IMG/VR virus record: IMGVR_UViG_3300025897_002116
Coordinates: 8,953 to 72,952 of that record
DNA: 64,000 bases
Reading direction: 5' to 3' (one strand)
DNA from: a virus
Part shown: piece after piece, positions 6,578 through 42,980 of the stretch
How positions within the stretch are numbered: the first letter of the stretch is position 1
Layout: each line of letters begins with the position of its first letter
The notes under the pieces: model-generated
The model's database searches: none
Seen by the model: the letters and a program-made list of their open reading frames with translations, nothing else
What the model was told of the DNA's origin: nothing
Position numbers and translations under genes: made by a program

Positions 6578-7201
6578 TTATATTAAATTAGGTTTCTGTA
6601 TGGTAAGAAGTTTATTAAAAGTTTTTTCATCATACCCATAAAAAGGAAGTGGCGTAATATCAGAATCTACTCCAGGATATTGTTTAAAGTATCTACTATT
6701 CAATTGGTCCTCTTTTAATATTCCTTTATTTTTAATACCACCGTACATTAAATCTAATCCCTCTGGTAATCTATTTTCTTCAATGAAGTTCAATAGCTTT
6801 TTAGCTCCTTCGGGCCAAATTATATAAGCTAAAATAGAAAAAGTATCTGGTACTAACCAAAATGTATCTAAATCTGTTCTATCTAATATTTCTTCAAATG
6901 AAAAATCAATAGGCTTCATTAATTCGGCATCATCTTCTATAATAACATAAGGAGCATTACTTGCAATACATTCTTCATAAAGTCTCATATGCATTCTATT
7001 TGCACATACAAGAGATGGTATATGAATCTGCAATGAATCATATTTATTTCCTTCAATCATTCTCGTATCTTCTTTGGTTAATTTATACTCTAACCCATCA
7101 ACCGCATCTACAAATTCAAAATCGAAATAAGGACTAAATGTATTAGTAAATTTAGTTCTACGGTCTTGTCTTCTTTTTAACGAAATAACTTTGATGTTCA
7201 T
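6578..7201 (-). CDS. glycosyltransferase family 25
   Basis: VISLKRRQDRR, FVDAVDG, IIEDDA, AYII motifs. Confidence 0.8.
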   Translation of the reverse strand: MNIKVISLKRRQDRRTKFTNTFSPYFDFEFVDAVDGLEYKLTKEDTRMIEGNKYDSLQIHIPSLVCANRMHMRLYEECIASNAPYVIIEDDAELMKPIDFSFEEILDRTDLDTFWLVPDTFSILAYIIWPEGAKKLLNFIEENRLPEGLDLMYGGIKNKGILKEDQLNSRYFKQYPGVDSDITPLPFYGYDEKTFNKLLTIQKPNLI

Positions 7202-7211
7202 ATAATATAAT

Positions 7212-7970
7212 TTAAAGCATGTATCTATCTGATTCTCTGTTTAGGCTTTCAAAAATATATTTATCGAATTTTGAAAAACCAAAGTAATGTTTGTACTTAT
7301 TAGATTTATAATCTTTTGTAAAATTATACTTAGTGTTATTTTTTTCACAGATATTTGTAAAATAGTACTGACAAATTATAGTTGATACAATTATTCCTTG
7401 TGTTATTAGTTTCTCTGTCGGTTCTATGTTTGTTAAGTAATATTTTCTAACTTTATAATATGAATCAATAAAAAGATTCTTTATATCTTCTGTTTTAAAC
7501 CTCAGTATGCCGACATTGAATACAAGTTTTGGATCAAATGAAAAGTCTGAAAACACCTCATCCATTTTATATTTTTTTAAAATATTCAATATATCTCTGT
7601 GGCATTGTTGTAGTCTTTCTTTTTGTTCAAATACAATATCAGATGTTTCATCAACTGAAAGTTTAGTGTGTAAAATTATATCCCCATCAAATGTAATACT
7701 TCCTGCTGGTTCCTGAGTATGTACGTAAATCTTTAGGTCATCTGTAATCTCAAATTCAACATTTTCTACATTAACAAAGACATCGTAATAACCTTTTAAA
7801 TAATTTAAAGAGTAATCACAACCATAGAATTTTATTTTATGGCCAAGTGATTTTGCTCGTTCCATTGATATTTTATATAACTTTAGAACATGGTCTGTTT
7901 CATTATCTTTGGTATATCTACCACCTTTATAATCTCCAATATGTGTTGAAAAACTAAAAATTAATGTCAT
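7212..7970 (-). CDS. DUF6734-like, GT-A-like protein
   Basis: FDGDII (DxD) and FNVGIL; paralogous in pattern to 9771 and 17464. Confidence 0.55.
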   Translation of the reverse strand: MTLIFSFSTHIGDYKGGRYTKDNETDHVLKLYKISMERAKSLGHKIKFYGCDYSLNYLKGYYDVFVNVENVEFEITDDLKIYVHTQEPAGSITFDGDIILHTKLSVDETSDIVFEQKERLQQCHRDILNILKKYKMDEVFSDFSFDPKLVFNVGILRFKTEDIKNLFIDSYYKVRKYYLTNIEPTEKLITQGIIVSTIICQYYFTNICEKNNTKYNFTKDYKSNKYKHYFGFSKFDKYIFESLNRESDRYML

Positions 7971-8545
7971 ATTAAACTATAGTTTTTATTTTCAATAAGA
8001 TCGGTTACCCATTTAGAAACTTTTTGATGTCCCTCGAAACTCCAATGACCTCCATCTTCTTCTTCCTGCATATCTATTTTGTTAAGAGCCCACCAATTAT
8101 TATCAGATGGAAAGTAATAAGAATCTATTTCATTAGAGTTAAGATACTTTACTAAACAATTAAAAGTGGTTTGGTAATATCTCTTGAGAGGTTCTTCATA
8201 TTCTGCTCTCATTGCATAATAATTATCACTATATCTTTCACGAATTTTAATATATGAAGATTTCGGCCAATTAGAATAGAAATCTGATTCTTCCCTAACA
8301 AATGATGACCTTGCTGAATGTGTATCAAATATAAAAAGATAATCTCCTTTTTTGACTTTATTTATATTTGTTAGTATACTAAATAATATATTTTCATTTG
8401 AGTAACCATATTGAGCCAAATTCTTTTCCTTACAATTTAAATGTTCGGTTACAATTTGTGACATTATTTTATCTTTATCATTGGTTCTATCTCTACAGCC
8501 CCAACCGTAGACAAAAGAATCTCCAAAAAACCAAGCAGTTTTCAT
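7967..8545 (-). CDS. SGNH/GDSL hydrolase-like protein
   Basis: FFGDSF, GYSN, DGGH motifs. Confidence 0.7.
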   Translation of the reverse strand: MKTAWFFGDSFVYGWGCRDRTNDKDKIMSQIVTEHLNCKEKNLAQYGYSNENILFSILTNINKVKKGDYLFIFDTHSARSSFVREESDFYSNWPKSSYIKIRERYSDNYYAMRAEYEEPLKRYYQTTFNCLVKYLNSNEIDSYYFPSDNNWWALNKIDMQEEEDGGHWSFEGHQKVSKWVTDLIENKNYSLI

Positions 8546-8546
8546 A

Positions 8547-9128
8547 TTAAATTAAATTTATTTTTTCTAGTTTTTTTTTAATCCAAGAGGAATCATCAAA
8601 TGTTTTATCAGGATATCCAATTACCTCCTGTATCGCAGTAACTACACTAGGCCACTTTTTTTGATAATCGTGTCCGCCAATAGATCCACCTGGTTTTACT
8701 TTAGGGTAATACAATGTTAAATCTTGCTTTACTGATTCATATAAGTGATTGGCATCTATGTAAATAAAATCTATACTATTATCTTCAAACGTATCAACAA
8801 CATTATAACTATAATCTGATATTAAGGATATGTTATCGAAGTATCGTGTATTTATTTCGAATTGTTGTTTAACAAGTTCCCAAGAATAATCATGGTTCTC
8901 GTTAAATATCTCGTGCCCCTCATGTGGCTCTACTGTATAAATCTTATCAAATATTTGAGATGATGCAAATAACATCGTGGATTCTCCCATATAGGAACCT
9001 ATCTCAATCATAGTAGTGTTCTTGCCTTTTAGAGTTTTAAGTTCCGTTAGCATATCCACAAACCCAAAAAACATATTATTTGTATTACCTTTGAACCAAT
9101 GTGGTGTATGTAATCTTTGAGTATTCAT
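8547..9128 (-). CDS. class I SAM methyltransferase (Methyltransf_24-like)
   Basis: IEIGSYMGES, DFIYIDANH, KPGGSIGGHDY. Confidence 0.85.
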   Translation of the reverse strand: MNTQRLHTPHWFKGNTNNMFFGFVDMLTELKTLKGKNTTMIEIGSYMGESTMLFASSQIFDKIYTVEPHEGHEIFNENHDYSWELVKQQFEINTRYFDNISLISDYSYNVVDTFEDNSIDFIYIDANHLYESVKQDLTLYYPKVKPGGSIGGHDYQKKWPSVVTAIQEVIGYPDKTFDDSSWIKKKLEKINLI

Positions 9129-9745
9129 ATAATGGATTTTACTATTCTTTCTTTATAGAAGTTTTTAAAAATAATTTGTTTATCACTATAAACACACGCA
9201 TATAAACATCTTGGTTTATCTGATTTGTTTGATTCTGATTGATGTGTAGTATCTCCATGTATTGCAACTATATCTCCGGCTTTTGGATATATCTTTGTAT
9301 CTCTTAATTGTAGTGTTCCGTTCTCATCCGTAAAGTCATTCAGTATTACAGACATATTTACTGTATTAGCTCCTTCGTTAAAATTACCTCCGATTGTATT
9401 ATCAGTATGTTTTCCAAATCCAAAATTATCATTGGGTAATTTAACAACAATCTGGTCATTATATAACCAAACATCTTTACTATTCAGAAGTTGTGTTGCA
9501 ATATCAATCATAAGGTTTGATTTATAAAAATCCAAAAGATAGGGATCATACATCCCCGCACATCCCAATCCATTCCAATGAATATCTCCTCCATATTTAG
9601 AGGGCTTTCCTACCTTATCACTTACCCATTTTCTTAATTTAATAGAACGAGTTTGTAATTCATGAACTACATCTTCACTTATCATTTTTTGTAAATGTAC
9701 CCATCCATGTTTTTTATAAAATTGTAAATTATTATGTATATTCAT
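9125..9745 (-). CDS. PhyH-like 2OG-Fe(II) dioxygenase
   Basis: FYKKHGWV, HTD, ENGTL, H.S..N.S...R. Confidence 0.8.
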   Translation of the reverse strand: MNIHNNLQFYKKHGWVHLQKMISEDVVHELQTRSIKLRKWVSDKVGKPSKYGGDIHWNGLGCAGMYDPYLLDFYKSNLMIDIATQLLNSKDVWLYNDQIVVKLPNDNFGFGKHTDNTIGGNFNEGANTVNMSVILNDFTDENGTLQLRDTKIYPKAGDIVAIHGDTTHQSESNKSDKPRCLYACVYSDKQIIFKNFYKERIVKSII

Positions 9746-9770
9746 GAATGCCTTCCTCCTGGTACATCAA

Positions 9771-10691
9771 TCATAATAAAACCCTTTGTTTAGTATCATT
9801 ATAAATATTGTTTAAATAATACATGACCTCTTCACGGTATATTAAATCTTTTTTAATTGTAGATTTATCTAACCAAATATGCCAATATTTAAAGTTACCA
9901 ATAGTATTTGAACTATTTGAATCAACCCACATAGGAGAATAACCACAATCCGAATGAGATACATCAGCAGATAGCTGTTCTTCAGAAAACGCTAAATAAG
10001 TTTTATCCTCAATACACCCAACCTTTAAATTTAATTCTCTTGCACAATAACCAAGTATTGATTGGTCCGATAATAACCACAACCATTCTGGTGTATTTTT
10101 GTATTTAGTTGAAACTACATTAAGATGATTTACATAGTAATTATTTTGTAATTCTTTATTATTCATAAATACAAAAGAAGTATTTGGCATTAACATTCTT
10201 TGATTAAAATTTGTAATAGGAACTTTATATTCTTTTATTAATTCATCTGTAATAAAGTATTTTCCTCTATGCAATTCCCAATGTGTATGAACTAAATCAT
10301 AATTAAATACTGATTTTGGTAGTTCACTTTGAACTATGAAATCATTATCTAAAAATAAAAATGGGCCCACTTCTTTTCCTATTGCTACTGATTTACCACT
10401 TGTCCACCATTTACCTGCATCTAAAGTATCTTCATTGTACTTATTTAATGTATCTATATCTATTTCATCGAACAACTTAATCATGTTGTGTTTTTTATAA
10501 AAAGAATACCCAACATCATCAGTATACAATTTGATTGGAACTTTTAAAAACTTTCTGGCACTTGTTATTGCTGCTTTGTTGATTAGTAATTCGTAATCAA
10601 CTATATCATATTCTTTACCTTTATTTTTATAAAAGAAAGGTTTTGTCCAATTAACAAATATTACTTTATAATTTACTTGTATGCCAGCCAT
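9771..10691 (-). CDS. DUF6734-like, GT-A-like protein
   Basis: WTKPF, LYTDDVG, W..GK, FLFLDNDF, PNTSF. Confidence 0.6.
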   Translation of the reverse strand: MAGIQVNYKVIFVNWTKPFFYKNKGKEYDIVDYELLINKAAITSARKFLKVPIKLYTDDVGYSFYKKHNMIKLFDEIDIDTLNKYNEDTLDAGKWWTSGKSVAIGKEVGPFLFLDNDFIVQSELPKSVFNYDLVHTHWELHRGKYFITDELIKEYKVPITNFNQRMLMPNTSFVFMNNKELQNNYYVNHLNVVSTKYKNTPEWLWLLSDQSILGYCARELNLKVGCIEDKTYLAFSEEQLSADVSHSDCGYSPMWVDSNSSNTIGNFKYWHIWLDKSTIKKDLIYREEVMYYLNNIYNDTKQRVLL

Positions 10692-10692
10692 T

Positions 10693-11001
10693 TTACATAA
10701 AACCTAATTCAAGTCTTGCTGAATCCGACATCATAGAGGAAACATATGGAGGATTAAATGTTAACTCTACGTACACATCATTAACCCAGCTAATCGATTT
10801 GACCATCTGTTCTACTGAACCTGGTATTTCTTCTGCTGAAGGACATGAGGGTGAAGTCAAAGTCATAACTACATGTACGTTGTTGTCTGAATTAATGTTT
10901 ACTTCATAAATTAGACCTAATTCGTATATATCTACAGGGATTTCTGGGTCGTAAATGGTTTTTATAGCATCTATAACTTCCTCTTGTTGGGTTTGTACCA
11001 T
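10693..11001 (-). CDS. sufT: Fe-S cluster assembly protein SufT / DUF59
   Basis: DPEIPVDIYELGLIY, MTLTSPSCP, ARLELG. Confidence 0.9.
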   Translation of the reverse strand: MVQTQQEEVIDAIKTIYDPEIPVDIYELGLIYEVNINSDNNVHVVMTLTSPSCPSAEEIPGSVEQMVKSISWVNDVYVELTFNPPYVSSMMSDSARLELGFM

Positions 11002-11004
11002 AAC

Positions 11005-11613: not shown

Positions 11614-12396
11614 TCACTCACTCCAATGCTTAAATTGTAGCTCTTTCATATCAATTGGCTCCCTTTTCATATGTCCACCTTTTGAGAAATTTGCTCCTCT
11701 TTTAAGATACCCTCCTAATAGGTTTCTTCTCATTCTATTAGAATTATTAGTTTCGGAACCATGAACGTTATGAGAGTGTAGTAATACCACCTGCCCTTTT
11801 TTTAATACTCCTTCTAGTTTCCTAAAATCATGACCTTCCGGCATGATACAAGGCTTGCCTCTTTCATTATTCCAGAATGCTGGGTTGGTTTTTACTCTTT
11901 CCTGGTCTACTTCTATCGGTAATATTGGAAGTCTGTGTGATCCTTCGTATACCCAAACGGCTCCATTACCTTCATCATGATTATCTAAAGCTAAGGCCGT
12001 ATTGATAATTTCATTGTGACCGCATTTAGTGTAGAATGCATTTTGATGCTGATCTCTGCCTAGCTGTCCGGGTGGTTTGAAGTAACACCAATCTTGCATT
12101 CCATCTATTGGACCATCCATTAGGTACTCAACTGCTTCTAAAATTTTTGGATGTGCAAAATATTTCTCTAGTAATAGTGAGAGTTTATGGGGGTAAGCAA
12201 ATGGGTCCCACTCTCCCCAAATCTTTCCGTCGGGTGATTCGGTTCCTGTTCTTTCTTTTCTTAGACGGCTTAGTTCATCGTTAATCAAATCACATTCTTC
12301 TTCTGTGATTAGTTCTAAAACGGTAAAGCCTTTATACCTCCAGTCAAATGTAATTTGCTGTAGTTCTTCTTCGCTAAGGTATTTTAATTTTGACAT
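11614..12396 (-). CDS. phytanoyl-CoA dioxygenase family protein
   Basis: YFKPPG, HQN, GNGAVWVYEGSH, HGSETN.S.R.RR. Confidence 0.85.
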   Translation of the reverse strand: MSKLKYLSEEELQQITFDWRYKGFTVLELITEEECDLINDELSRLRKERTGTESPDGKIWGEWDPFAYPHKLSLLLEKYFAHPKILEAVEYLMDGPIDGMQDWCYFKPPGQLGRDQHQNAFYTKCGHNEIINTALALDNHDEGNGAVWVYEGSHRLPILPIEVDQERVKTNPAFWNNERGKPCIMPEGHDFRKLEGVLKKGQVVLLHSHNVHGSETNNSNRMRRNLLGGYLKRGANFSKGGHMKREPIDMKELQFKHWSE

Positions 12397-13753: not shown

Positions 13754-14818
13754 TTAGTTTGATAAAGGTGCTTTAATATTTGGGTGTGATTGATAGTTTA
13801 CTAAATGAAAATCAATTTGCCCATTGATAGCTTCATCAAATGATCTATGTTCTAAATTAGCTAAAAATATAGGATTCATTTTTAATTTAGGTAATTTAAA
13901 TGAGTCTCTACCAATTTGTTTTTTAGCTTGTTCAATATGATTTGAATATAAGTGAACATCTCCAAGATTCCCAATTAACTCATCAGGCACCATATTTACT
14001 TCCTTAGCTATGATTTCTAGTAATAAACCATATGATGCTATGTTAAATGGAAGCCCTAAGAAAGTATCTACAGAGCGTTGATTCCACATTAAGGAGATAG
14101 ATCTTGTTGGTATTCCGTAAGTATCTAAACCTGTATCCCATATTTTATTATTAGAGGTAAATTGATTATTTTGTTCTTCATTTTCAAGTCGAAACTTATC
14201 GTTCCAGAGACCTAATCTTTCTTCATAACTCAACTCTTTTGTATAAACTTGAAAACCATAATGACAAGGAGGTAGTGTCATCTCTGATAACTCTCCAACA
14301 TTCCATGCTGATACCATCAACCTTCTACTATCTGGATTCTCTTTGAGATTATTGATAAGAATTTTTATTTGGTCAAACCATTGGTTTCTGTACCCTGATT
14401 CTACTGTCCAATCTCTCCATTGTTTACCGTAAATAGGTCCAAGTGATCCCCATACATTTGCAAAATTTTTATCTGTTTTTATTTTTTGAACAAAATCTTT
14501 TAATGGTAATGGTTCATCTAAATCATGAGCATATGTACGCTCATATACCTTATAAGCATCCCCATTCCAAATATTACAGCCATTATCAACTAAGTACTTT
14601 ATGTTTGTATCTCCTTTAAGAAACCATATAAGTTCAGTAACTATAGTTTTAAGTGGAAGTTTTTTAGTAGTAAGTAGAGGAAAGCCTTCACTCATATTAT
14701 GTTTAATATGTCTACCAAATATAGATACAGTACCAGTTCCTGTTCTATCCTTTTTGATTACTCCATTATCAAGAATATCATGTAGGAGGTCTTGGTACTG
14801 TTTATCTAAACTGTTCAT
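13754..14818 (-). CDS. thyA: thymidylate synthase
   Basis: DRTGTGT, FPLLTTKK, LGPIYGKQWR, SRR, LPPCH, QRSVD, LGLPFNIASY, HLYSNH. Confidence 0.97.
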   Translation of the reverse strand: MNSLDKQYQDLLHDILDNGVIKKDRTGTGTVSIFGRHIKHNMSEGFPLLTTKKLPLKTIVTELIWFLKGDTNIKYLVDNGCNIWNGDAYKVYERTYAHDLDEPLPLKDFVQKIKTDKNFANVWGSLGPIYGKQWRDWTVESGYRNQWFDQIKILINNLKENPDSRRLMVSAWNVGELSEMTLPPCHYGFQVYTKELSYEERLGLWNDKFRLENEEQNNQFTSNNKIWDTGLDTYGIPTRSISLMWNQRSVDTFLGLPFNIASYGLLLEIIAKEVNMVPDELIGNLGDVHLYSNHIEQAKKQIGRDSFKLPKLKMNPIFLANLEHRSFDEAINGQIDFHLVNYQSHPNIKAPLSN

Positions 14819-17463: not shown

Positions 17464-18570
17464 TTAATCTAATTCTATAAATTTAAAGCCCGTTAAGTTT
17501 TCGTAAAGCTCTTCACCTTTAGATTTCATTGGTAATGGGTCTGATGAATTTTCCAAGCTTAGTAGATTCTGCGGGAGGTTAGGATGTATCTTCCGGAAAT
17601 AAGAATGTATTTTTTGAAGTTGATTATCCCCTATTTCTTTTCTTAACTTATGAATAATCATTGCTTGAAAAATATCAAACCATTTTTGATAAGTAAGATG
17701 AAGGAATCCGTTAAAATTGTAATCTAAGAATGATAAAAGAGTTTCCCTAGTTTTATCTTCTAGGGTATATTTTACCATTTCTTGGGTATCTTTATGTATT
17801 ACATTATACGTCAATGGGAAGGTTAGACCTTCAAGACTCACAGCATCATTGTTAACGCTATTATTTCTGTTGTCCACACTAAAGGGAATATTATTAAAGA
17901 AGACATGATTGTGTTTGTCCGATATTTGCAAATACTCTGAGTTTAGTTCTCTTAATTTAAAATGAAGCATGAGTTGATCTATAAAACATGGTCCATCAAT
18001 ATCTTGATCAATCACTTTTTTATGTTTACCGTAAAAATCTAAAACAAAATCACTGGCCTCTTTAAATAATTTAGGATTCCCTATATAAGCCAAATTCGTA
18101 TTAGGAATAGATGAAAAATCAAACGTATTTAATATTCCAGCAGGCATTTCGTCCTTTAATTTTGAAAATAATTTTGAATAACAATTATTTTCGTTTAATA
18201 TAAACTCAGTGCGATTTGAAGGACCTAAGTCTAGGTGACTAAACACATTAGAATTTTTGTATTCTCCTAGTTGAAATTTATCAAATAAGAGTGTATCTGT
18301 ATCTAAATGTAAGTATTGTTCCTCTATAGTGTTAAATACTTTAACTTTAGGAACAGACCAGCATTTTAAATCTTGCTGATTAATGGTTTTATCGTCTATA
18401 AAATCATATGGTAAGTTTAATTCTTCTACTTGCTTTCTAATCTTTGGTGTACAGTAGAAGGATATATTTCCGTAGTGTTTCTTTGCTAATATCGCACTAA
18501 GGTATTGAGTGTACAGAAGCTCTTTCCAAAGTACTTCGTGTTGATTAGCGTATGTATGTATTACTTTCAT
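17464..18570 (-). CDS. DUF6734-like protein
   Basis: MKVIHT, AKKHYG, W...K, YLHLDTD, PNTN. Confidence 0.6.
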   Translation of the reverse strand: MKVIHTYANQHEVLWKELLYTQYLSAILAKKHYGNISFYCTPKIRKQVEELNLPYDFIDDKTINQQDLKCWSVPKVKVFNTIEEQYLHLDTDTLLFDKFQLGEYKNSNVFSHLDLGPSNRTEFILNENNCYSKLFSKLKDEMPAGILNTFDFSSIPNTNLAYIGNPKLFKEASDFVLDFYGKHKKVIDQDIDGPCFIDQLMLHFKLRELNSEYLQISDKHNHVFFNNIPFSVDNRNNSVNNDAVSLEGLTFPLTYNVIHKDTQEMVKYTLEDKTRETLLSFLDYNFNGFLHLTYQKWFDIFQAMIIHKLRKEIGDNQLQKIHSYFRKIHPNLPQNLLSLENSSDPLPMKSKGEELYENLTGFKFIELD

Positions 18571-25447: not shown

Positions 25448-25454
25448 AACTTAC

Positions 25455-28350: not shown

Positions 28351-29204
28351 CCTCTTAGTTTCTTTTTAATTTCTTCTTCAGCTTCTGTAACAACTATCTT
28401 TCCATCACCATAGGCTTCCTCTAGTTCCCTTATTCCGGAAACTAATTTAAAGAGGCCATGTGGGGTGACAGAACAGCTATGATCAGATCCCCAGCTCGTT
28501 CTATCTAAAGTTACATGTCTTTCTATAATAGTGGCCCCTAGGTATATAGCAGCAACTGTTGTGCCTAAAAGTAACTCATGTCCTGAGTATCCTATTTCAC
28601 AGTCGGTGTATTTTTCAGCTAATGTATTTATAGCAGATAGATTAAGATCTCTAACCGGTGTAGGGTATGAAGAATTACAATGAAGTATTCCTATTTGATG
28701 ACCGTTTTTAAATAGGTCTTTTGCTTTTCTTAAAACATTTACTGCCGAGTCGATCTCCTCCTCTGTGGACATTCCTGTGGAAAGAATAACTTTCATGTTA
28801 CTTTTCATACAAGATATAAGTATCTCATAATTAGTTAACATTGCAGAAGGTATTTTAATAAAAGGCAGGTTATATTGTTTTAAAAATTCTACCGAATCGT
28901 AATCCCAAGGAGAAGCAGACCAAGTAATTCCGGACTGTTTACAGTATGAATCTATAAAATCATATTCTTTTTTACCGAACTCTATCTTGTTTTTATATTC
29001 AAGATAGGGCATTTTTCCCCATGGAGTATCTCTTATAATATTTTTTTGATGTTCAGGAATACTTTTATCAGGGTTTCTTTTTTGGAATTTGACTGCATTA
29101 CAGCCTGCTGCTGCTGCTATATCTATAAGTTTTTTTGCAACAGAAAGATCGCCGTTGTGATTAATACCTATTTCAGCTATGATATAGGTGTCAAATTTCT
29201 TCAA
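28347..29204 (-). CDS. neuB: nonulosonate synthase (NeuB family, no C-terminal SAF domain)
   Basis: IAEIGINHNG, AVKFQKR, KIPS, HCNSSYP, GYSGHE, IERHVTLD. Confidence 0.92.
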   Translation of the reverse strand: MKKFDTYIIAEIGINHNGDLSVAKKLIDIAAAAGCNAVKFQKRNPDKSIPEHQKNIIRDTPWGKMPYLEYKNKIEFGKKEYDFIDSYCKQSGITWSASPWDYDSVEFLKQYNLPFIKIPSAMLTNYEILISCMKSNMKVILSTGMSTEEEIDSAVNVLRKAKDLFKNGHQIGILHCNSSYPTPVRDLNLSAINTLAEKYTDCEIGYSGHELLLGTTVAAIYLGATIIERHVTLDRTSWGSDHSCSVTPHGLFKLVSGIRELEEAYGDGKIVVTEAEEEIKKKLRG

Positions 29205-29493
29205 TTCTTCTAGATTTATCGCAAATTAACAAGTCGTATGGAGGTTTATCCCCTACTCTTAATTGATGGTATTTGCAACTCCATTCATCAAGTTGTTTTT
29301 TTGTTAAATCATAATGGTTTATACCAGATTTTGATCCTCTTGCTGTCCAGTATGTAATGTTATGACCTTCATCATACAGTTTATTAATCTTATCTATATT
29401 AACCTGTATAGGGCTGGCTAAAGCATACGCTCGAAAGTCTCCTCCGTAAACGTAATCACAAATTGTTTCATCAATATCTACGTAGATGTTCAT
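29191..29493 (-). CDS. HAD-like phosphatase
   Basis: DIDETIC, WTARG, KP.YD..ICDK. Confidence 0.8.
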   Translation of the reverse strand: MNIYVDIDETICDYVYGGDFRAYALASPIQVNIDKINKLYDEGHNITYWTARGSKSGINHYDLTKKQLDEWSCKYHQLRVGDKPPYDLLICDKSRRIEEI

Positions 29494-30110
29494 AATGTAC
29501 TGTAGTATTTATTTTGTTTTTCTTGTCTTATTATATCTTTTGGATGATATAGAGCCCACTCTTCTTCCATAGGGAGCATACCATGTAACTTAAAACCCTT
29601 TAATACTTCATGAACCTTATTAACCCATTTAATATCTAAATGGTTTCTATATATTCTCATCTGCCAATCAGCCCAGTTTACCCATCCTTTTTCATTTACA
29701 TTCCAGCCCCATTTTTTAATATGATCTTCTGTTAATCCTTGTACAGTATTTACTCGAGGCACTCTTAGCATATCAACTTCAGAATTTGCTTCTAATAATG
29801 CTGGTAGGTTGTCTATTAAGTGTTTGTTAGGTATCTCATCTGCATCTATCTGAAATATATATTCTCCAGAGCAGTAACTTGTAAGTTGATTTTTCCAATC
29901 TGCAAAATGATTATCAAAATCATCATTAAACACTTTAACCTCTACATAGTCTAAACCACTTAGGTAAGTGAAAACACTACTATCCCCATTTTTAGAATCA
30001 TAAAGAACCACTATTTCATCTTCTTCTCTTTTGTTAAAGATTAAAAAACTAATAAGCTTCTGTACTTCTACTAACTCATTACAAACAGTTACAGCGTAAC
30101 TTATTTTCAT
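29490..30110 (-). CDS. glycosyltransferase family 2
   Basis: ISYAVTVCNE, QIDADE, D.Q.R, VHE. Confidence 0.85.
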   Translation of the reverse strand: MKISYAVTVCNELVEVQKLISFLIFNKREEDEIVVLYDSKNGDSSVFTYLSGLDYVEVKVFNDDFDNHFADWKNQLTSYCSGEYIFQIDADEIPNKHLIDNLPALLEANSEVDMLRVPRVNTVQGLTEDHIKKWGWNVNEKGWVNWADWQMRIYRNHLDIKWVNKVHEVLKGFKLHGMLPMEEEWALYHPKDIIRQEKQNKYYSTL

Positions 30111-30556
30111 GCTTCAAAAAATCCGATTGCATCTAGAGCATCCATAAAATCTTTTTGTCCAAATTGCTTAGAATTTTTCATATCCATTCTATATGTTTGA
30201 TCAGAAGGAAATTGCTTTATTTTTCTTTCTTCTTCTGTAATTTCTATGGCTTTAACAGAAGACCATTTCCAATTTGTTTTATTTGTTCCATCTATAAACA
30301 CCATTCCTTTAGCTGGTAATGTAACCGTTGATGGAAGCCAGGTTTGCTTATTTGAGTCTTCAAACATTAAATCTTTGTATAACTCAGGGGATGTTTCAAT
30401 TGCATCAGTGATAACTTTGCTTCCTTTCACTAACTCGGTACTAGACGTAAAACCACATCCCAGGCATAGCCATGTTGTTAGTTTTTCACTAAGTACTTGT
30501 TCATAACATGCGTTACCGTTGCATCGGCCGCATTCTACTAATTGGTCTTTATCCAT
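30107..30556 (-). CDS. zinc-finger hypothetical protein
   Basis: CGRC...CLGCG. Confidence 0.65.
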   Translation of the reverse strand: MDKDQLVECGRCNGNACYEQVLSEKLTTWLCLGCGFTSSTELVKGSKVITDAIETSPELYKDLMFEDSNKQTWLPSTVTLPAKGMVFIDGTNKTNWKWSSVKAIEITEEERKIKQFPSDQTYRMDMKNSKQFGQKDFMDALDAIGFFEA

Positions 30557-31838
30557 TTGTTTGTAATTTTGGTAAATTTAATTTAGGTAAATTTAATTCG
30601 ATTTGTTTGGGAAAATCAGGAAGGGTTCTTTCTAGAATTATTCCTAGTTCCTCAGTCATTTTATCTAAACTAAAATTAGTCCTGTTTTTAAATCCTAATT
30701 TTTTCGCGTTAACTGTGAAGCTCTTATAATTCTTATAGACATTTTTTATCGCATTAGCAGCTTGCCCATCATCTGGGGTGAACCATTTTGAAGTCTCAAT
30801 TATAGTGCCTTGTGATAAAGCTGATTTATGTACATCGGTTAGTGTTCCTCCTACTAGTATGGCAAGATCTTTATCTAAAAAATCTAATTGACCAGACCAA
30901 CCAGATGATATGATAGGTTTATTACTAAGGCTAAACTCTAATAAAGGTCTTCCAAATCCTTCTCCTTTTGTAAAACTCACCATTGCCTTTACTTTAGGGT
31001 GGTTGTATAGCTCATTAACTTCTTCATCGGTAATATCGCCGTGAAAAAGATATATGTTAGGTAAGGATCCTTTAACAGTAGATTTTATACTTTCAATTTT
31101 ATCTAATACCTCTTCCCTGTCAAGTAAGGATGTAGTAGCGTTATTAGTTTTTAAAATTAATGCAGGAGGATTAGGTTTATTTTTAAATACCTCTAAGAAA
31201 GACTTGACTGTGTATCCAACATTTTTCCTATCATGTCCGAAATCTCCTTGGAGCCAATGTCCCACAAATAGAAAACAAAAGGACTCTTTAATCTGATTTA
31301 AGGCTATAGTAACTTCCGAATTAGGTCTAGGTGTGGTAGGAAAATATTTTGTAATATCAGCTCCTTCGAAAATTACTTCAATAGGAGTTTCTAATTTTAC
31401 CTTACCTACTGTCTTATTTGTATTTTGATCTACTGCATCAAATGAAGTTTCAAGAAAAATATCTTTACTGTGTTGAGATGATGTTAGTATTAGATCCATA
31501 CTATTGCAACCTTTAATCCAGCTAGCATCTGCAAGATTTGTTTCTATACCTGCAGTTAATCCTATATTAAACTTCCCTGTCTTTTTGAACTCATTTGGGA
31601 CAGTAATTTGAATCCATACATCAGGTTGAGATTGCAAGTTATGTACTATTAGATTTTGAAGTTCTACTTCTTGATGATCAGCTAAATAACCGAATCGAGT
31701 ATTTCCCCATCTCTGGCTTAATACTTTAACTTCGTATTTCTCTAATGATAATAAAGCTTTAATGAAATCTCTAGATCTTGCTCCATATCCTGAGTATGTG
31801 TCAATTGGGCAAGAAACTACTACTGTTGTTTTATTCAT
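30549..31838 (-). CDS. GT-B glycosyltransferase (GT4-like)
   Basis: SGYG, DRKN, KGEGFGRPLLE, WSGQLDF. Confidence 0.85.
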   Translation of the reverse strand: MNKTTVVVSCPIDTYSGYGARSRDFIKALLSLEKYEVKVLSQRWGNTRFGYLADHQEVELQNLIVHNLQSQPDVWIQITVPNEFKKTGKFNIGLTAGIETNLADASWIKGCNSMDLILTSSQHSKDIFLETSFDAVDQNTNKTVGKVKLETPIEVIFEGADITKYFPTTPRPNSEVTIALNQIKESFCFLFVGHWLQGDFGHDRKNVGYTVKSFLEVFKNKPNPPALILKTNNATTSLLDREEVLDKIESIKSTVKGSLPNIYLFHGDITDEEVNELYNHPKVKAMVSFTKGEGFGRPLLEFSLSNKPIISSGWSGQLDFLDKDLAILVGGTLTDVHKSALSQGTIIETSKWFTPDDGQAANAIKNVYKNYKSFTVNAKKLGFKNRTNFSLDKMTEELGIILERTLPDFPKQIELNLPKLNLPKLQTNG

Positions 31839-31839
31839 C

Positions 31840-33285
31840 TTAATAACCAGTTAATTTATGCTTAATGTACTTTGAAGGTCTTTTTTTAGTCTTAATTAAA
31901 TCAAATCTAGATCTAGGTTTAAATTTATCAAAAGCTTCATCTAATGTTTCAACTATATTTTTACACATAGCAGATGCAGACATTTGTGACTCATCTGATG
32001 TCACCCACTCTCTGCCTTTAAGACCTCTTTTTTCTCTATCTTCAGAAGAAAGGTTGTAAACCTTTTCTATAGCCTTAGCTACATCTTCAGGTTGACATCT
32101 ATCATCGAAAATATAAGGGGTGGTTGGGGAGCCTGTAAGTGAAATATTAGATGGGAAAACCGGTTCTACCCACTCCCCACATTCTTTTACAGTACCTCTA
32201 TGGTTAGAAGGAAAATCAGCGTCAAAATCTATCCACTTACCGTCTTTTTCAAATCTCATTTGATCTTGCATACCTCCGGTTACATTACCGATAATCATCT
32301 TACCAGCCATCATAGATTCAGTTAAACTTAATCCCCAACCTTCGTTAGAAGAAATTAAAACCGTAACATCTGAGATATTATACATGAGGTTCATTTGACT
32401 AGGATTAATACGGGCCTGTGAAAAATACACATTAACGTAACTTGGATCGGTTAATGCCTCTTTTACAGCTCTTAGATCAGTTCCATTATTGTCACTAACA
32501 TGAGTATGCATTATAAGAGCACATTTTTTTGCTTTTTCTTCTCCAATTAAGTCACAGAAAAGTCTATACGCAAAAATTACATCAGCAGGTTTTTTTCTTT
32601 GAATATTTCTAGAATTGAAAAATACTATAAATTCAATATCGTCTCTACCAAGAGTATTCTTTTTAAACTCTAAAAGATTTTCATATAGAGAATGCTTAGA
32701 ATCTATAGGGAAAAAATCATTTTCGTTAATTCCATGAGGAACATACTTTAGTATCTTACTATCGGCTTTTTCACCTAGGACTAATCTATTAATATTGTTA
32801 GTTTGTTTTGAAATTGCCATAAGTACATCAACTGAATCATAATAGTTGACATTATACCCTGGGGCTGGGTAGTCATCCCATATATTGAGCCAGAAGATTG
32901 GTATCTTGGACCTAATTTCCCTTTCTATTTGGAATAACCATACCCAATATCTTGGATCGGTAAAGATAAAAATAGCATCAGGTTTCTCTCTTTCAATTAA
33001 CGCTCTCATTAACTCAGCATCTCCGTAACCATTGTTCGGCAGTACCTGTACAAGTGAATCTGTGATTCCTATTATTTTGTTTACCTCCTCTGATAGATCG
33101 TAGATTTTACCAATCTCAGGATGCTTTACAGCGGCTCCTACATTGAACCAATTAAAGTGCTGTGCTGTACCGACTGTGAACTCTCTTGCCATTGTGGCAA
33201 TTCCGGAGTTCATTCTGATATCATCACATAAAAGTAAGATCTTTTTCCGATCCTTCTTTTCGATATAACGAAACTGTTCTTTCAT
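31840..33285 (-). CDS. GT-B glycosyltransferase (GT4-like)
   Basis: VPHG, RNIQRK, SSNEGWGLSLTES. Confidence 0.85.
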   Translation of the reverse strand: MKEQFRYIEKKDRKKILLLCDDIRMNSGIATMAREFTVGTAQHFNWFNVGAAVKHPEIGKIYDLSEEVNKIIGITDSLVQVLPNNGYGDAELMRALIEREKPDAIFIFTDPRYWVWLFQIEREIRSKIPIFWLNIWDDYPAPGYNVNYYDSVDVLMAISKQTNNINRLVLGEKADSKILKYVPHGINENDFFPIDSKHSLYENLLEFKKNTLGRDDIEFIVFFNSRNIQRKKPADVIFAYRLFCDLIGEEKAKKCALIMHTHVSDNNGTDLRAVKEALTDPSYVNVYFSQARINPSQMNLMYNISDVTVLISSNEGWGLSLTESMMAGKMIIGNVTGGMQDQMRFEKDGKWIDFDADFPSNHRGTVKECGEWVEPVFPSNISLTGSPTTPYIFDDRCQPEDVAKAIEKVYNLSSEDREKRGLKGREWVTSDESQMSASAMCKNIVETLDEAFDKFKPRSRFDLIKTKKRPSKYIKHKLTGY

Positions 33286-37662: not shown

Positions 37663-38652
37663 CTAAGTAGAGAGGTTTTTCTTGAAAATAATCTTTCTCC
37701 AATAATTATTTAATTCACTTAGTAATAAACCAGCTTCACCAAGTTCAGAACGGTTATCGGGATATCCTATTTCTTTATCATAATCAAAATCTTCTACATC
37801 TTCTATGAATTCATACATATCAGGATTAACTCTCTTTAACTTTGGAATATCCCTTCTCCAAAGATGTGAAGGTAATTGTGTTTGGGATTTATATAAATTA
37901 TTTATATGGTCATCTGGTAGTTCGTTATCTCCTGTAAATGAATGAATCATTTTAGTTCCCATTTGTCCTATGAGTGTTTGATAAGTGGCAAGTGAAGTAT
38001 GTAGTATACCATCTTCTTTATCTAATACTAAATCAGCAGGCATATTTATAACCTTCATACTATCAAGAAGTTCTCGTAAAGAATTAACATTAACTATATA
38101 CGATTGAGCTCCTGGTGCTTCAAATCTTCTGATATGCTGTAATCTACCATTCAAATTTATTCCTCGTATTTCGGGTGTTGCTCTACCCAACCAGAGTATA
38201 TCGAATGAAAGTTTTATAATATCTTCTACCAATAGAGTGTACTCACCATCTTGAATAGAATTAATTAATGCAGTTGTTGGTCTAGCATCATCTTCTAAAA
38301 ATAAAAAATATCCTAGTGAATTTCCATTAGAATCGAATTCATTCAAAGCAATCTCATACGCCTTCTGATGAGATAATGCAACTCCAATAATATTTTTAGA
38401 AAGATTCCCTGATGGGTCTATAAATGTATCCAATCTACCAGTTTGTATCATAGATTTGATATCAAGATCTCTACCCATTATAGCATCTACAAATTCATAT
38501 TCTAAATCAGACCATTCCCAAGCTTTAGTAAATTCCTGTCTTCTATAACTATCCTTTTCGGATATTACATAAACTTTATCTGCTCCAAAATTTTGTAAGT
38601 GGGCAATATTAGTCTTTATCGACACTCTTAATTTCCTTTGGCAAGAATTCAA
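37663..38652 (-). CDS. glycosyltransferase family 25 (start uncertain)
   Basis: VYVIS...RR, FVDAI.G, GVALSH, FLEDDA, GAQSY. Confidence 0.75.
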   Translation of the reverse strand: MNSCQRKLRVSIKTNIAHLQNFGADKVYVISEKDSYRRQEFTKAWEWSDLEYEFVDAIMGRDLDIKSMIQTGRLDTFIDPSGNLSKNIIGVALSHQKAYEIALNEFDSNGNSLGYFLFLEDDARPTTALINSIQDGEYTLLVEDIIKLSFDILWLGRATPEIRGINLNGRLQHIRRFEAPGAQSYIVNVNSLRELLDSMKVINMPADLVLDKEDGILHTSLATYQTLIGQMGTKMIHSFTGDNELPDDHINNLYKSQTQLPSHLWRRDIPKLKRVNPDMYEFIEDVEDFDYDKEIGYPDNRSELGEAGLLLSELNNYWRKIIFKKNLST

Positions 38653-38836: not shown

Positions 38837-38842
38837 AGTTAC

Positions 38843-39022: not shown

Positions 39023-39067
39023 AGGTGTTTTTTAAAATTTGATATAAATATATATTAATTAACTAAG

Positions 39068-39538: not shown

Positions 39539-39552
39539 ATCTAAATATAGTA

Positions 39553-39996: not shown

Positions 39997-40169
39997 TACT
40001 TAGTCTTTTGTAGTATTTCAAGAGCGCGTTGTATTTCTTCAGTTGTGTATTCTAAGAGAATTTGATAAGCTCGTCGATCATCTACTTTTCGTTTAAAGTC
40101 TTTTGATTCGCTTTGATGACTTGAAAGTCTATTTTGTCTATCATGCCAGGCTGTAATTGTATCACTCAT
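39996..40169 (-). CDS. small hypothetical protein (57 aa, MSDTITAWHDRQ...)
   Basis: Manual translation; TAATG overlap with the GNAT gene; promoter motif at 40167-40225. Confidence 0.6.
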   Translation of the reverse strand: MSDTITAWHDRQNRLSSHQSESKDFKRKVDDRRAYQILLEYTTEEIQRALEILQKTK

Positions 40170-40226
40170 AACTTTCTATTTTTATATTTACTTAAAGATA
40201 GTATAATTTAACCAGAAAACCAACTA

Positions 40227-40727
40227 TTACAAGTTTTTATTATGAACTAAAATACCATTAGCAAAAAAATTACTATTGTCTTCTACATGAAAAATATAAG
40301 TCTGTACTGGTTCTCTCTCCTGTTCTTCTAAGTCTACAAGTTTTACATTCTCTAGTTCCAAATCAATTAAACTATCTCCTACTTTAAGTTGATTAATTTC
40401 GGAGGTAAAAGTGTATCTTGCTGATGTTAGGTTTGGTTTATAAGATGCTAGGTGTTTACCCTCAACATAGTATGGATGATCAAATGTAGAAATTATTTCA
40501 ATATCATTTTCTAATATCAATTTGATTAAGTCATTATGTATAGAGGTAGAAACTTCTATTACTTCTTTAACTTCTATTTCTTGAGTTTTTTCGTTATAAG
40601 AGAGAACAAAATCACCTATTCTAATGTCCTCTATGTACTTAGTATAGTAATCCTCCATGGTAACCTCTGTACCTGCTACAAAGCAAAGTTTATTGGACAT
40701 TTGTTTACTATTTAAAAATTTTTCCAT
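40227..40727 (-). CDS. stand-alone Hint (BIL/intein-like) domain protein; alternative start 40700
   Basis: CFVAGT...IEDIRIGD.V...ST.DHP...NFFANGILVHN. Confidence 0.9.
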   Translation of the reverse strand: MEKFLNSKQMSNKLCFVAGTEVTMEDYYTKYIEDIRIGDFVLSYNEKTQEIEVKEVIEVSTSIHNDLIKLILENDIEIISTFDHPYYVEGKHLASYKPNLTSARYTFTSEINQLKVGDSLIDLELENVKLVDLEEQEREPVQTYIFHVEDNSNFFANGILVHNKNL

Positions 40728-40809
40728 TTATATCTATTAAATTTTTGAAATATTTACACTTGCTTTAAGGAAATAAAACAGTCTGCACTATACTTTTCAT
40801 ATGCTACTT

Positions 40810-41952
40810 TCAAATTAAACTTTTTGCTTTCTTTTTTAAATCTTTATTTTTTACTTGTATTACTATTTGGTATTTAGTTCCTTCTTCTACTTTATCATAT
40901 GTCATATGCTGCCAAGGTTTATAAATATATACATCTCCTTGTTTAATCTTACAAACAGCGCATCCTCCTTCTTTACTTCGTTCCCAACTTTCTTCTGCAA
41001 TAAGGTTACCTCCTTTGAAATTATCATTTAAGTATATATCAATACTCATACATAGTTGTTCAGGGGCAGATAAAGGCATTCCTTTAGTAGTCATAACATG
41101 TCTATCGTATTTATCTCCTTCTTTGTATCTGAATAGACTGATATCTAAATCATTAAAATTAACATTATTAAACTCTTTAAATATTTTCTCACTAATGATA
41201 CTATTTAATCTTTGATTAGATTTAATTTTTGGTACATATCCAAATCCTCTAGAATGCACTACTCCTTTTACTAAAGCTGAAGTTTTATGATCTTTTAAAT
41301 CGTTAATATTATCTTCTAGAAGTTCATTACAAAGATCTTGAGGTATTATATTAGTTAATTTACGAAAAAGAGGAGTGCAAACAAACTCTTTACCTACATA
41401 ATAAGTCCAACATACTTCTTTATAGTCTCTCATAAATTTAGGATAAGATTTGAGAGAGTCTTTCTTGAAATGATATATCTTTTTGTTTAAAAGTTTATCT
41501 TTTTTTAATCTAGCATATTCATATATCGATAAACAACAGTTTTGGTTAGCTATAGATTTAGCTGCTTCTTCAAACTTACCGTAACTTCTATCTTTATATG
41601 TATCCATAAAGATACCATCATACTTAATGCCTTTCTCTGCTAATGTAGGTATTACTTCAGTCCAGTCACCAAATAAGATAGTAACATTTGACTTACCTAT
41701 AGCCCATTCTAACGCTTTTTCATAAATCTGAGGGTTTATTTCTATACAGGTGTAGTGGTTTGCAAGTTCTGACATTTTATTTGCCGAGAATCCCATTCCG
41801 AATCCAACATCAAGAACGTTGCCTCCATTTTCACAAACTACGTTTGAATACATATCCATCAGAGATTTGGATATAGAATCCATTACAATGGAACGATTAT
41901 TATTTTTTAGGTAAATTGTTTTACCTGTAAATACTACCTCTTTATCTCTCAT
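40810..41952 (-). CDS. SAM methyltransferase (GAMT/RMT2-like) fused to a 2OG-Fe(II) oxygenase-like domain
   Basis: VLDVGFGMG, IEINP, GDW, DGIFMDT; C-terminal half Y..GD...H, YLNDNFKGG, H...V..G. Confidence 0.8.
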   Translation of the reverse strand: MRDKEVVFTGKTIYLKNNNRSIVMDSISKSLMDMYSNVVCENGGNVLDVGFGMGFSANKMSELANHYTCIEINPQIYEKALEWAIGKSNVTILFGDWTEVIPTLAEKGIKYDGIFMDTYKDRSYGKFEEAAKSIANQNCCLSIYEYARLKKDKLLNKKIYHFKKDSLKSYPKFMRDYKEVCWTYYVGKEFVCTPLFRKLTNIIPQDLCNELLEDNINDLKDHKTSALVKGVVHSRGFGYVPKIKSNQRLNSIISEKIFKEFNNVNFNDLDISLFRYKEGDKYDRHVMTTKGMPLSAPEQLCMSIDIYLNDNFKGGNLIAEESWERSKEGGCAVCKIKQGDVYIYKPWQHMTYDKVEEGTKYQIVIQVKNKDLKKKAKSLI

Positions 41953-42473
41953 ATTAAACTTGTATCTAATTTTAATCGCGTTTTTGATATTCCTATTTGG
42001 AATATTTCAATATTATGTGGGAGTTCAATTACGAATTTTATAATATTAGAAACTTCTGAGAATTTTAGTTTTTGATTTTTTACTAACTTAGCACTCTCTA
42101 ATGTATTAGGGTATACATTTATAATACGAACTTCCTTTTCTATATCTCGTAATTCAAATGTTTTTTGTTCTAAATGTTTTTTATCCTCAATATACTTTTG
42201 ATTAGGGCCTCCAAATATTAATGCAGATGTTAGTATATTAATTATAGTTTTAGGTTTATATTTCCACTCTTTATAAACAAGTTCAAATAAATCAGATTGT
42301 AATTTATCTTTATATTCATTATTAATAAATACATCATACTCGTTTATCACATTTGAAAAGTAATGTGCATACGAATCAGTAGTACTTAGGGAATCAGCTT
42401 TATGACCATTTGAAGAGAGATGATCTTTTATATTCTTTCCCAATCCATAATTTCCTGTAACTAATATTTTCAT
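41949..42473 (-). CDS. short SDR/Rossmann-like protein
   Basis: ILVTG..GLG, DVFINN, IINI, Y...K. Confidence 0.75.
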   Translation of the reverse strand: MKILVTGNYGLGKNIKDHLSSNGHKADSLSTTDSYAHYFSNVINEYDVFINNEYKDKLQSDLFELVYKEWKYKPKTIINILTSALIFGGPNQKYIEDKKHLEQKTFELRDIEKEVRIINVYPNTLESAKLVKNQKLKFSEVSNIIKFVIELPHNIEIFQIGISKTRLKLDTSLI

Positions 42474-42485
42474 ACCATAAAGGTA

Positions 42486-42980
42486 TTACAGTAGTGGGTT
42501 TTTTAAATCTAAATGTTCGTAAAAGTAGAACCCGATTAAACTCCATCGATTTCCCTTAGTAACTTCTAAGACTTCGTGTTCTAATGAATGTTTAAAAGTG
42601 TAAAGGGAACCTGTATTTTTTGGTAGTATCTGGTATTTCGGTTGGTGTATAACAAAATCACCTCCTTCGTAATCTTCATTTAAAGAAGCTCCTATATTAT
42701 AAATCTGATTATCATAATAGATATCTCTATGTCTACCGAACTTGTCACCAACGGAATAGTTAAACATATGAATAGCATCTAAACTTTTAACAACTTTAAT
42801 TCCAGTTGTTTCAGTAAAGTAAGAATCCATTCTATCAAAAATCCACCGTATATATTGATTCCACCCAATAGAATAAAAATTATAACTAATAGGACGTGGG
42901 TATTCATTCCTCTCTGTCTTTTGTAACTTAGCCGAAAGTTTTATAATAGCATCACATTCTTGTTTATTAAATGAAATCAT
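42486..42980 (-). CDS. 2OG-Fe(II) oxygenase (prolyl-hydroxylase-like)
   Basis: F.K.EC, Y..GD.F..HRD, LNEDYEGG, HEV..VTKG.RWS. Confidence 0.88.
   Translation of the reverse strand: MISFNKQECDAIIKLSAKLQKTERNEYPRPISYNFYSIGWNQYIRWIFDRMDSYFTETTGIKVVKSLDAIHMFNYSVGDKFGRHRDIYYDNQIYNIGASLNEDYEGGDFVIHQPKYQILPKNTGSLYTFKHSLEHEVLEVTKGNRWSLIGFYFYEHLDLKNPLL

Follow-up and report, generated by a model that had tools for sequence, protein, structure and literature searches.

A shared C-terminal tag on nine enzyme genes

We analyzed a 64-kb window of viral DNA (positions 8,953 to 72,952 of the 72,952-bp IMG/VR contig IMGVR_UViG_3300025897_002116) and found that nine of its enzyme-like genes, located in two separate clusters at 6578-10691 (cluster 1) and 40810-42980 (cluster 2), share a short C-terminal tag in which two hydrophobic residues, [LIM][LI], directly precede the stop codon. 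The tag is real and occurs far beyond chance. It belongs to a virus-restricted module, the constant parts of which are an ATP-grasp-Hint ligase and a downstream-encoded peptide of 43 to 53 amino acids (aa). The minus strand carries nearly all genes of the window, and the G+C content is ~32%. The tag was counted over the whole contig in minus-strand open reading frames (ORFs) of at least 50 aa, with the expectation taken from the internal dipeptide frequency of 0.028. It was present in 9 of 114 ORFs (3.2 expected), exactly the nine genes named in the original prediction, and in none of the other 105. The exact probability that nine marked ORFs among 114 fall into two or fewer runs is 6.9e-9, and a run of at least six tagged genes arose in only 4 of 1,000,000 shuffles. 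A doubtful 69-aa ORF at 204-413, ending in ELL, also matches; the ORF filter preferred an overlapping longer plus-strand ORF at this place. Among controls without the ligase, the tag was found in 6 of 213 ORFs (5.2 expected) of Flavobacterium phage vB_FspM_immuto (immuto), 1 of 59 locus ORFs (58 on the plus strand) of the marine virus AG-345-E15, and 1 of 34 genes in a dioxygenase-rich region of cyanophage S-SSM7. In these other AT-rich phages, the tag frequency is at a background of 2 to 3%.

All nine genes lie on the minus strand, and their ends are as had been claimed, including the variety of the last codons (tta ata, atg ctt, tta att, att ata, tta tta and cta ctg). Cluster 1 comprises a GT25-family glycosyltransferase (6578-7201, 207 aa, end QKPNLI; Pfam PF01755, E 2.9e-15), the enzyme-like, DUF6734-like protein g7212 (7212-7970, 252 aa, end DRYML; no Pfam match), the SGNH/GDSL-like hydrolase g7967 (7967-8545, 192 aa, end KNYSLI; its family representative matches Pfam Lipase_GDSL), the Methyltransf_24 methyltransferase g8547 (8547-9128, 193 aa, end EKINLI; PF13578, E 3.3e-19), the PhyH-type 2-oxoglutarate (2OG) dioxygenase g9125 (9125-9745, 206 aa, end VKSII; PF05721, E 6.9e-10) and the DUF6734-like protein g9771 (9771-10691, 306 aa, end KQRVLL; PF20508, E 4.3e-4, below the curated cut-off). 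Cluster 2 comprises g40810, in which a methyltransferase (residues 1-191) is fused to a 2OG dioxygenase (195-363) (40810-41952, 380 aa, end KAKSLI), a Rossmann/SDR-like protein (41949-42473, 174 aa, end LDTSLI; no Pfam match) and the 2OG-FeII_Oxy_3 prolyl-hydroxylase-like dioxygenase g42486 (42486-42980, 164 aa, end LKNPLL; PF13640). For g42486, a start at the ATG at 42980 is likelier than at the TTG at 42983, and four of its residues (H84, D86, H135 and R145) are fully or almost fully conserved. Stand-alone methyltransferases of 200 aa (62% identity) and oxygenases of 165 aa align to the respective halves of g40810.

The nine enzymes had been described as unrelated. Several different folds are indeed present, but the description was overstated: g7212 and g9771 are distant DUF6734-like paralogues, the C-terminal half of g40810 is a 2OG-type dioxygenase like g9125 and g42486, its N-terminal half is a methyltransferase like g8547, and the nine genes thus amount to about six folds. 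As had been noted, the glycosylation cluster at 22206-33285 has no tag on any of its 14 genes (ends ITF, KND, DKI, LLK, NRW, LNK, NDT, GKI, LRG, EEI, STL, FEA, TNG and TGY). The same genome also carries untagged PhyH, DUF6734 and GT25 paralogues (11614-12396, 17464-18570 and 37663-38652, minus strand; ends HWSE, IELD and NLST), which are natural controls.

The ligase, the small peptide and the tagged enzymes in viral loci

The ligase gene (43132-45450, minus strand, 772 aa) adjoins cluster 2 on its upstream side. Pfam and AlphaFold2 together divide its product into an ATP-grasp ligase (residues 1-293), a degenerate Hint domain (296-470) and two canonical Hint/BIL domains (472-620 and 623-771). 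Pfam alone recognized only the Hint-type domains (PT-HINT, Intein_splicing and Hint over 472-771), and a profile search of the Protein Data Bank likewise gave matches to the Hint part only. Residues 1-470 were modeled by AlphaFold2 with a predicted local distance difference test (pLDDT) score of 94. The nearest folds to the model of residues 1-293 were glutathione-synthetase-like proteins, Escherichia coli YgiC, GspS and trypanothione synthetase (VIA-align Z 7.6-10, with 200 to 230 residues aligned): 5oeu (Z 10.0), 7uka (YgiC, 9.6), 3k1t (9.3), 2wyo (9.0), 2io7 (GspS, 8.8) and 2vpm (7.6). More distant were RimK (5.8), LysX/ArgX (5.8-6.2) and TTLL6 (5.7). Foldseek placed the ligase model with 7uk8 at E 2.1e-5, and feature-based matches to TTL and GSP_synth clusters (scores 0.83-0.86) served as leads only. 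From the model we infer that the ligase is an ATP-grasp enzyme of the glutathione synthetase/glutathionylspermidine synthetase type, in chemistry as well as in fold. D9, E22, T25, R110, Y113, D120, D172 and R237 are invariant in the ligase family (61 to 100 homologues), and N24 (at least 90% of the 61-row alignment), K59, K176 and K189 are nearly so. E22-x-N24 may be the Mg-binding E-x-N motif.

The Hint fold of residues 296-470 was matched closely by 2lwy (Z 19.4, root mean square deviation [RMSD] 1.6 Å, 138 of 138 residues), and the Hint profile of the ligase matched BIL2 (6tmm) at E 6e-25. C473 is invariant, H469-N470 and H618-N619 are invariant or nearly so, and a Cys opens the third domain. 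The start of the first Hint domain lacks a conserved Cys (consensus G299), and this domain thus probably performs no N-terminal cleavage. Since Ala follows the first His-Asn and Arg the second, rather than Cys, Ser or Thr, cleavage appears likelier than splicing. Between one His-Asn and the next Cys of the tandem Hint/BIL domains lie only one to two residues. The window also encodes a stand-alone Hint/BIL protein (40227-40727, minus strand, 166 aa; Pfam PT-HINT and Intein_splicing), which shares 46% identity with the final Hint domain of the ligase and is untagged; it ends in VHNKNL, with KNL as a three-residue C-extension. In a library of 1.84 billion proteins, the first 470 residues of the ligase protein define a family with 266 cluster representatives, whose lengths range from ~470 to more than 900 aa; the domain is N-terminal throughout, beginning at residue 1.

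Directly downstream of the ligase gene lies a 47-aa ORF (42980-43123, minus strand; …LYKK…KFFELFSAKHL), a candidate scaffold or carrier peptide. Its family has a conserved Y-K motif near the start and an end that is usually K-H-[LST], with KHL, KHS, ASVE and AALG among the C-terminal variants. The peptide itself is untagged (0 of 12), and a hidden Markov model of the family gave a single match on the contig, at E 8.5e-21.

We scanned IMG/VR with the ligase alignment and kept the best 80 of 109 relatives, which gave 53 non-redundant loci after reduction at 90% ligase identity. Their ligase proteins are 607 to 913 aa long, fitting a 470-residue core followed by one to three further Hint domains, and a peptide-family ORF of 43 to 53 aa directly follows the ligase gene in 52 of the 53 loci. 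The tag is concentrated around the ligase: its frequency is 27 to 37% at positions -1 to -3, 32% at +1, 45 to 65% at +2 to +7 and 40% at +8. Over +1 to +8 it reaches 188 of 401 genes (47%), as opposed to 47 of 499 (9%) far off (-5 and beyond, +15 and beyond). Within -4 to +12, every one of the 53 loci has one or more tagged genes, and 42 have three or more.

Clustering of the 775 proteins neighboring the ligases showed a bimodal split between tagged and untagged families. About 15 enzyme families are tagged, among them the 2OG-FeII_Oxy_3 family that includes g42486 (78 of 102), an unknown 196-aa family (25 of 34), a radical SAM family (23 of 30), the GDSL hydrolase family of the g7967 type (21 of 21), SET families (13 of 21 and 5 of 5), an NT5C/HAD family (10 of 10) and a carbamoyltransferase family (5 of 8). 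Class-I methyltransferases, DUF6734-like proteins and a GT25 enzyme complete the range, whereas the backbone families Hsp20 (0 of 14), PhoH (0 of 13) and DUF2061 (0 of 14) are untagged. The combinations of tagged families vary across the 53 loci, which bears out the suggestion that the tag marks a swappable set of enzymes. Some loci carry a tryptophan-halogenase-like enzyme or an Asp/Asn hydroxylase-like protein. Individual neighbors included a tagged 1167-aa B12-binding radical-SAM protein (end NNKLI) and SET-domain proteins (locus L010, 2233-5736, and locus L013, 2105-2593, both plus strand); L010 also has a Trp-halogenase-like gene, ending in KNLV, and an APS-kinase-like gene.

A functional link between the two clusters had also been proposed. 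BLAST against the ligase-neighbor proteins gave 20 matches for g7212, 13 of them tagged, and 9 for g7967, all tagged; the SDR-like protein of cluster 2 has 9 homologues beside ligases, 8 of them tagged. Homologues of cluster-1 genes thus adjoin, in other viruses, the same ligase gene that flanks cluster 2 here, which ties both clusters of the window to one system. The only gene families universal in these neighborhoods are the ligase-Hint protein and the small peptide. The backbone genes flanking the ligase differ between loci, indicating that the module moves as a unit; GroEL, GroES and DNA polymerase adjoin the ligase in 0 of 53 loci. Chaperones were considered as readers of the tag and rejected: GroEL and GroES for this lack of adjacency, and the Hsp20 groove since the window Hsp20 has BLAST matches in only 2 of 53 loci (14 genes by family clustering). 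A small-heat-shock-protein reader also disagrees with the tag itself, which consists of two adjacent hydrophobic residues and not I-x-I.

The ligase domain had no match in 50,697 GenBank phage records and was not found in immuto, S-SSM7 or AG-345-E15. Among 185,579 prokaryotic species genomes, a scan with a single N-terminal pattern gave just one match, a 2.8-kb contig from a metagenome-assembled genome. There was no match for g9771 in the GenBank phages or in GTDB genomes, and a pattern scan of IMG/VR returned no relative of g7967. Cyanophage dioxygenases were rejected as tagged relatives, being untagged in the S-SSM7 region given above. Our search of the literature, supplements aside, found no description of the tag, of a phage ATP-grasp-Hint fusion or of the conserved peptide. 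Shared C-terminal address tags and docking motifs are already known kinds; what appears new is this particular tag, the viral module it belongs to and the range of enzyme families that bear it.

Protein-level signal and possible roles of the tail

The consensus of the tag is roughly [KN]-[KN]-[KSTN]-[LIM]-[LI]-COOH, with lysine enriched at tail positions -2 to -4. Such an ending could arise without any functional signal, as a by-product of AT-richness, of the stop-start overlap (TTAATATGA) or of a nucleotide motif at cassette boundaries. Some observations fit this explanation. Tagged genes have an excess of TGA stops (19 of 40 vs 39 of 207) and of ATA as last codon, tags are commonest at -4 (ATGA) overlaps (105 of 203), and TTTAAT before the stop is common to five of the nine window genes. 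The TGA and ATA excess, together with the preference for ATGA overlaps, indicates that the stop-start overlap does shape codon choice. However, the same motif is found in 154 tagged genes without an overlapping downstream start (K at -3 in 74, L/I at -1 and I/L at 0). The stop codon is TAA in 114 of these uncoupled genes, their final Ile codons are ATA in 65, ATT in 43 and ATC in 7 (internal proportions 0.46/0.45/0.10), and their penultimate Leu uses all six codons in proportions near the internal ones. About half of the ATGA junctions lack the tag, and the glycosylation cluster has many ATGA overlaps and zero tags. Nucleotide similarity among tagged genes does not extend past the last three codons, and the low background of the other AT-rich phages also speaks against a compositional origin. 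The original prediction would have fallen if the coupling sequence alone explained the motif; this is not the case, given the uncoupled genes, tails of variable length and the untagged half of the ATGA junctions. The signal thus acts at the protein level and not via the TTAATATGA coupling sequence, and the nucleotide explanation, the least supported of all, is largely excluded.

What the tagged enzymes have in common is a short linear motif at the C-terminus, selected at the protein level and carried by a flexible tail a few residues long. In the AlphaFold2 model of g42486, the mean pLDDT is 95.6, and that of the last four residues is 53. Among the listed homologues of g9771, 79 of 120 end in [LIM][LI]; the tail lengths vary, and the two hydrophobic residues still come last. 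The corresponding number for g8547 is 40 of 120, and in this family the tag sits on a short extension past a conserved D-[ST]-S-W-I block, again of varying length. The fusion protein g40810 has its sole tag at the true C-terminus, though both of its halves belong to families that are tagged separately elsewhere. An internal KLTNII in g40810 was considered as a relic tag at the fusion joint and rejected, as it aligns to the N-terminus of the oxygenase half.

Our leading reading, to which we give slightly less than an even chance, is that the tag is a C-terminal docking motif that would bring interchangeable tailoring enzymes to a hub formed by the ligase and the peptide. Like its structural neighbors, the ligase would most likely act on a C-terminal carboxylate, here that of the small peptide; the peptide, or a group tethered to it, would next be modified by the tagged enzymes. 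Each enzyme would be docked by the common tail on the hub, which may be the ligase-Hint protein, the peptide or a complex of both, and the enzymes would thereby be swappable without evolving recognition domains of their own. This reading is suggested by the fact that the ligase-Hint protein and the peptide are the only universal partners, by the enzyme repertoire and by the logic of scaffold peptides and carrier proteins, which is the closest known. Prolyl-hydroxylase-like dioxygenases, methyltransferases, radical SAM enzymes and hydrolases are as expected for the modification of a peptide or a tethered group, and the always-tagged SGNH hydrolase family is a candidate, and only a candidate, for the release enzyme. 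Complex prediction for the ligase-Hint protein (61-row alignment) with g42486 (66-row) gave ipSAE values of 0.27 and 0.30 against a mark of 0.32, in runs made without controls.

A larger picture, which we find doubtful, is a mobile, self-contained plug-and-play system of large uncultured aquatic phages, in which the ligase would load or activate the 47-aa carrier and the four-to-five-residue tag would recruit more than 15 families. Such a system would be the viral counterpart of assembly lines built on carrier proteins, with one docking code for all enzymes. In its boldest form, the ligase would couple the peptide covalently to the tagged tails, making the module a protein-tagging system.

Several observations weigh against docking on a ligase/peptide hub. 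The tag frequency is 52% at -4 and 40% at -1 overlapping junctions and 17% at gaps of more than 20 bases, so that operon tightness and the tag are confounded. The tag is not universal in the tagged families, as seen from the proportions given above for the g42486, g8547 and g9771 families (78/102, 40/120 and 79/120), and at some ligase loci no more than one to three genes are tagged. In the window, six of the nine tagged genes lie ~30 kb from the ligase, and adjacency is thus not obligatory. Extra Hint domains were rejected as docking sites, their number showing no significant correlation with that of tagged genes (Spearman rho 0.22, P 0.16). The ATP-grasp fold match is middling (Z 8.8-10, RMSD 4-5 Å), no sequence-profile support for residues 1-470 was found in Pfam, even at E 10, or in NCBIfam, and ORF calling was mechanical throughout.

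The ligase also suggests a different role for the tails, which could themselves be its substrates or acceptors, with their C-terminal carboxylate activated and then extended or amidated, or with the C-terminus of the peptide ligated to the conserved tail lysines, which would be a Pup-like tagging of a particular set of enzymes. RimK and tubulin-tyrosine ligase activate and extend the C-terminal carboxylate of proteins. The structural neighbors glutathione synthetase, GspS and YgiC (Z 8.8-10) act on C-terminal carboxylates of peptides or proteins, and the weaker fold matches to RimK, LysX/ArgX and TTLL6, the need for the tag to sit at the true C-terminus and the lysines at -2 to -4 are all consistent with such a role. 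However, the small peptide, being universally adjacent, offers a more natural substrate, and the C-terminus of the peptide varies among KHL, KHS, ASVE and AALG without a matching change of the tag. We consider it unlikely that the tails are ligase substrates or acceptors.

The exposed position of the tail, its strict C-terminal location and its non-polar residues after basic ones would also suit a degradation or timing signal that limits the lifetime of accessory enzymes through a host protease such as ClpXP, FtsH or a tail-specific protease. The ClpX C-motif-2 degron, as in MuA, consists of basic residues followed by a small or hydrophobic C-terminus; its resemblance to the tag logo is in composition only. 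The avoidance of the tag by the other contig ORFs (0 of 105 vs ~3 expected) points in the same direction. A degron, however, explains neither the tight linkage to the ligase/peptide module nor the conservation over ~15 families in viruses with different backbones, and Pfam revealed no protease or adaptor gene in the window; this role is quite improbable. Weaker still is the case for a membrane or localization anchor holding the enzymes at the inner membrane. The basic-then-hydrophobic composition and the small membrane proteins (DUF2061) among the neighboring genes are compatible with it, whereas membrane binding would depend on just two hydrophobic residues, which is very little, and the tail is unstructured in the g42486 model, with no amphipathic helix predicted. 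Furthermore, the glycosylation cluster, which is likelier to act at the membrane, has no tag. We regard an anchor as very unlikely.

Genomic context and comparison with known systems

The window backbone is collinear with that of immuto, a 160-kb myovirus. The DNA polymerases are 68% identical, and tblastn found matches in immuto for 36 of 101 window ORFs with the order kept. Neither tagged cluster has a counterpart there, and 0 of the 9 tagged genes have a homologue; both clusters are accessory insertions. Megablast of window positions 6000-11000 against phages gave no match.

Other gene sets of the window, all on the minus strand, were noted alongside. Directly upstream of the ligase gene is a chaperone block of Hsp20, GroES and GroEL with an Hc1 histone-like protein (45623-48236), the Hsp20 gene (47826-48236) being without an immuto counterpart. 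A 7-deazaguanine DNA-modification gene set (51093-57497) is syntenic with immuto; it includes a QueF-like gene (52683-53591), a DpdA-like transglycosylase (54658-55449; 68% identity to the annotated immuto DpdA), FolE (56796-57497) and an additional 519-aa radical-SAM gene (51093-52652) that is not in immuto. The glycosylation cluster contains NeuB, a CMP-sugar cytidylyltransferase, a UDP-glucose-dehydrogenase-like gene, an epimerase and several glycosyltransferases, which suggests a nonulosonic-acid pathway; only its outermost genes are in common with immuto. A thymidylate-synthase homologue (13754-14818) is 354 aa long and carries a large insertion relative to the 266-position Pfam model, and the immuto homologue is likewise long (~420 aa aligned). 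Genes for an S1/P1 nuclease, not in immuto, and a non-specific DNA/RNA endonuclease lie close together (58721-59485 and 62586-63173). A 911-aa SusC/TonB-dependent-receptor-like protein (59531-62266) with CarboxypepD_reg, Plug and beta-barrel domains has no immuto homologue.

The analysis defines a previously unannotated viral module of an ATP-grasp-Hint ligase, a small peptide and tagged enzymes. It offers a way into the numerous orphan arrays of dioxygenases and methyltransferases in marine and freshwater phages, and a simple sequence rule for locating pathway members far from the core genes, such as cluster 1 here. If the docking code is true, it would explain the free shuffling of tailoring enzymes by phages, and the tag would be a compact, transferable address that brings arbitrary enzymes to a peptide-bound substrate and is useful for pathway engineering.

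Several known systems resemble parts of this module. KDEL, PTS1 (SKL) and encapsulin cargo-loading peptides each place one short C-terminal signal on diverse enzymes for one receptor and require a free C-terminus. The tag likewise is one short free-C-terminal signal on a diverse enzyme set, with a different sequence and in a phage context. The encapsulin cargo motif is of the LxxGxL type, as opposed to the K-rich stretch followed by [LIM][LI] in the tag logo, and Pfam revealed no receptor, compartment or encapsulin shell gene in the window. There was also no Pfam match to a PDZ domain or an S41 peptidase among the 97 window ORFs scanned; a reader may be encoded by the host. LysW is a carrier protein of ~50 aa whose C-terminus is loaded by the ATP-grasp ligases LysX/ArgX and presented to a series of enzymes. 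The peptide described here differs in ending with K-H-[LST] instead of the acidic tail of LysW, the LysX/ArgX fold match is weak, and the enzymes are unrelated.

Cyanomyoviruses of the Syn9 type carry tandem arrays of 2OG dioxygenases with halogenase-type enzymes, whose predicted role is the modification of peptides or secondary metabolites (PMC2938197), and the available part of that article makes no mention of a tag, a Hint fusion or a small peptide. Distant homologues of g42486 are found in these arrays; however, the S-SSM7 region is tagged in only 1 of 34 genes, and S-SSM7 has no ligase homologue.

The closest parallel is with PEARLs, which append amino acids to scaffold peptides and are structurally related to glutathione synthetase and glutathionylspermidine synthase, enzymes that phosphorylate the C-terminal carboxylate of a peptide before attack by an amine (10.1101/2024.03.12.584671). 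Another scaffold-peptide pathway is described in PMC13622209. As in the PEARL/pearlin systems, a small ribosomal peptide here stands beside a ligase whose structural relatives activate the C-terminal carboxylate of peptides, and the genes that come next encode a series of tailoring enzymes (oxygenases, methyltransferases and radical SAM enzymes, with a halogenase in some loci). Unlike in those systems, the enzyme is a plain ATP-grasp protein with Hint domains and not LanB-like and tRNA-dependent, and no lanthipeptide-dehydratase-type (LanB-like) Pfam match was present among the window genes scanned. In addition, the module is viral, and what its tailoring enzymes have in place of peptide-recognition domains is the shared C-terminal tag. 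Nonribosomal peptide synthetases and polyketide synthases use short non-catalytic termini, namely docking domains and C-terminal short linear motifs, to join separately encoded enzymes (PMC9113145). Such termini pair consecutive subunits one to one and usually span 15 to 30 residues, whereas the tag of the viral module is a motif of four or five residues common to many alternative enzymes.

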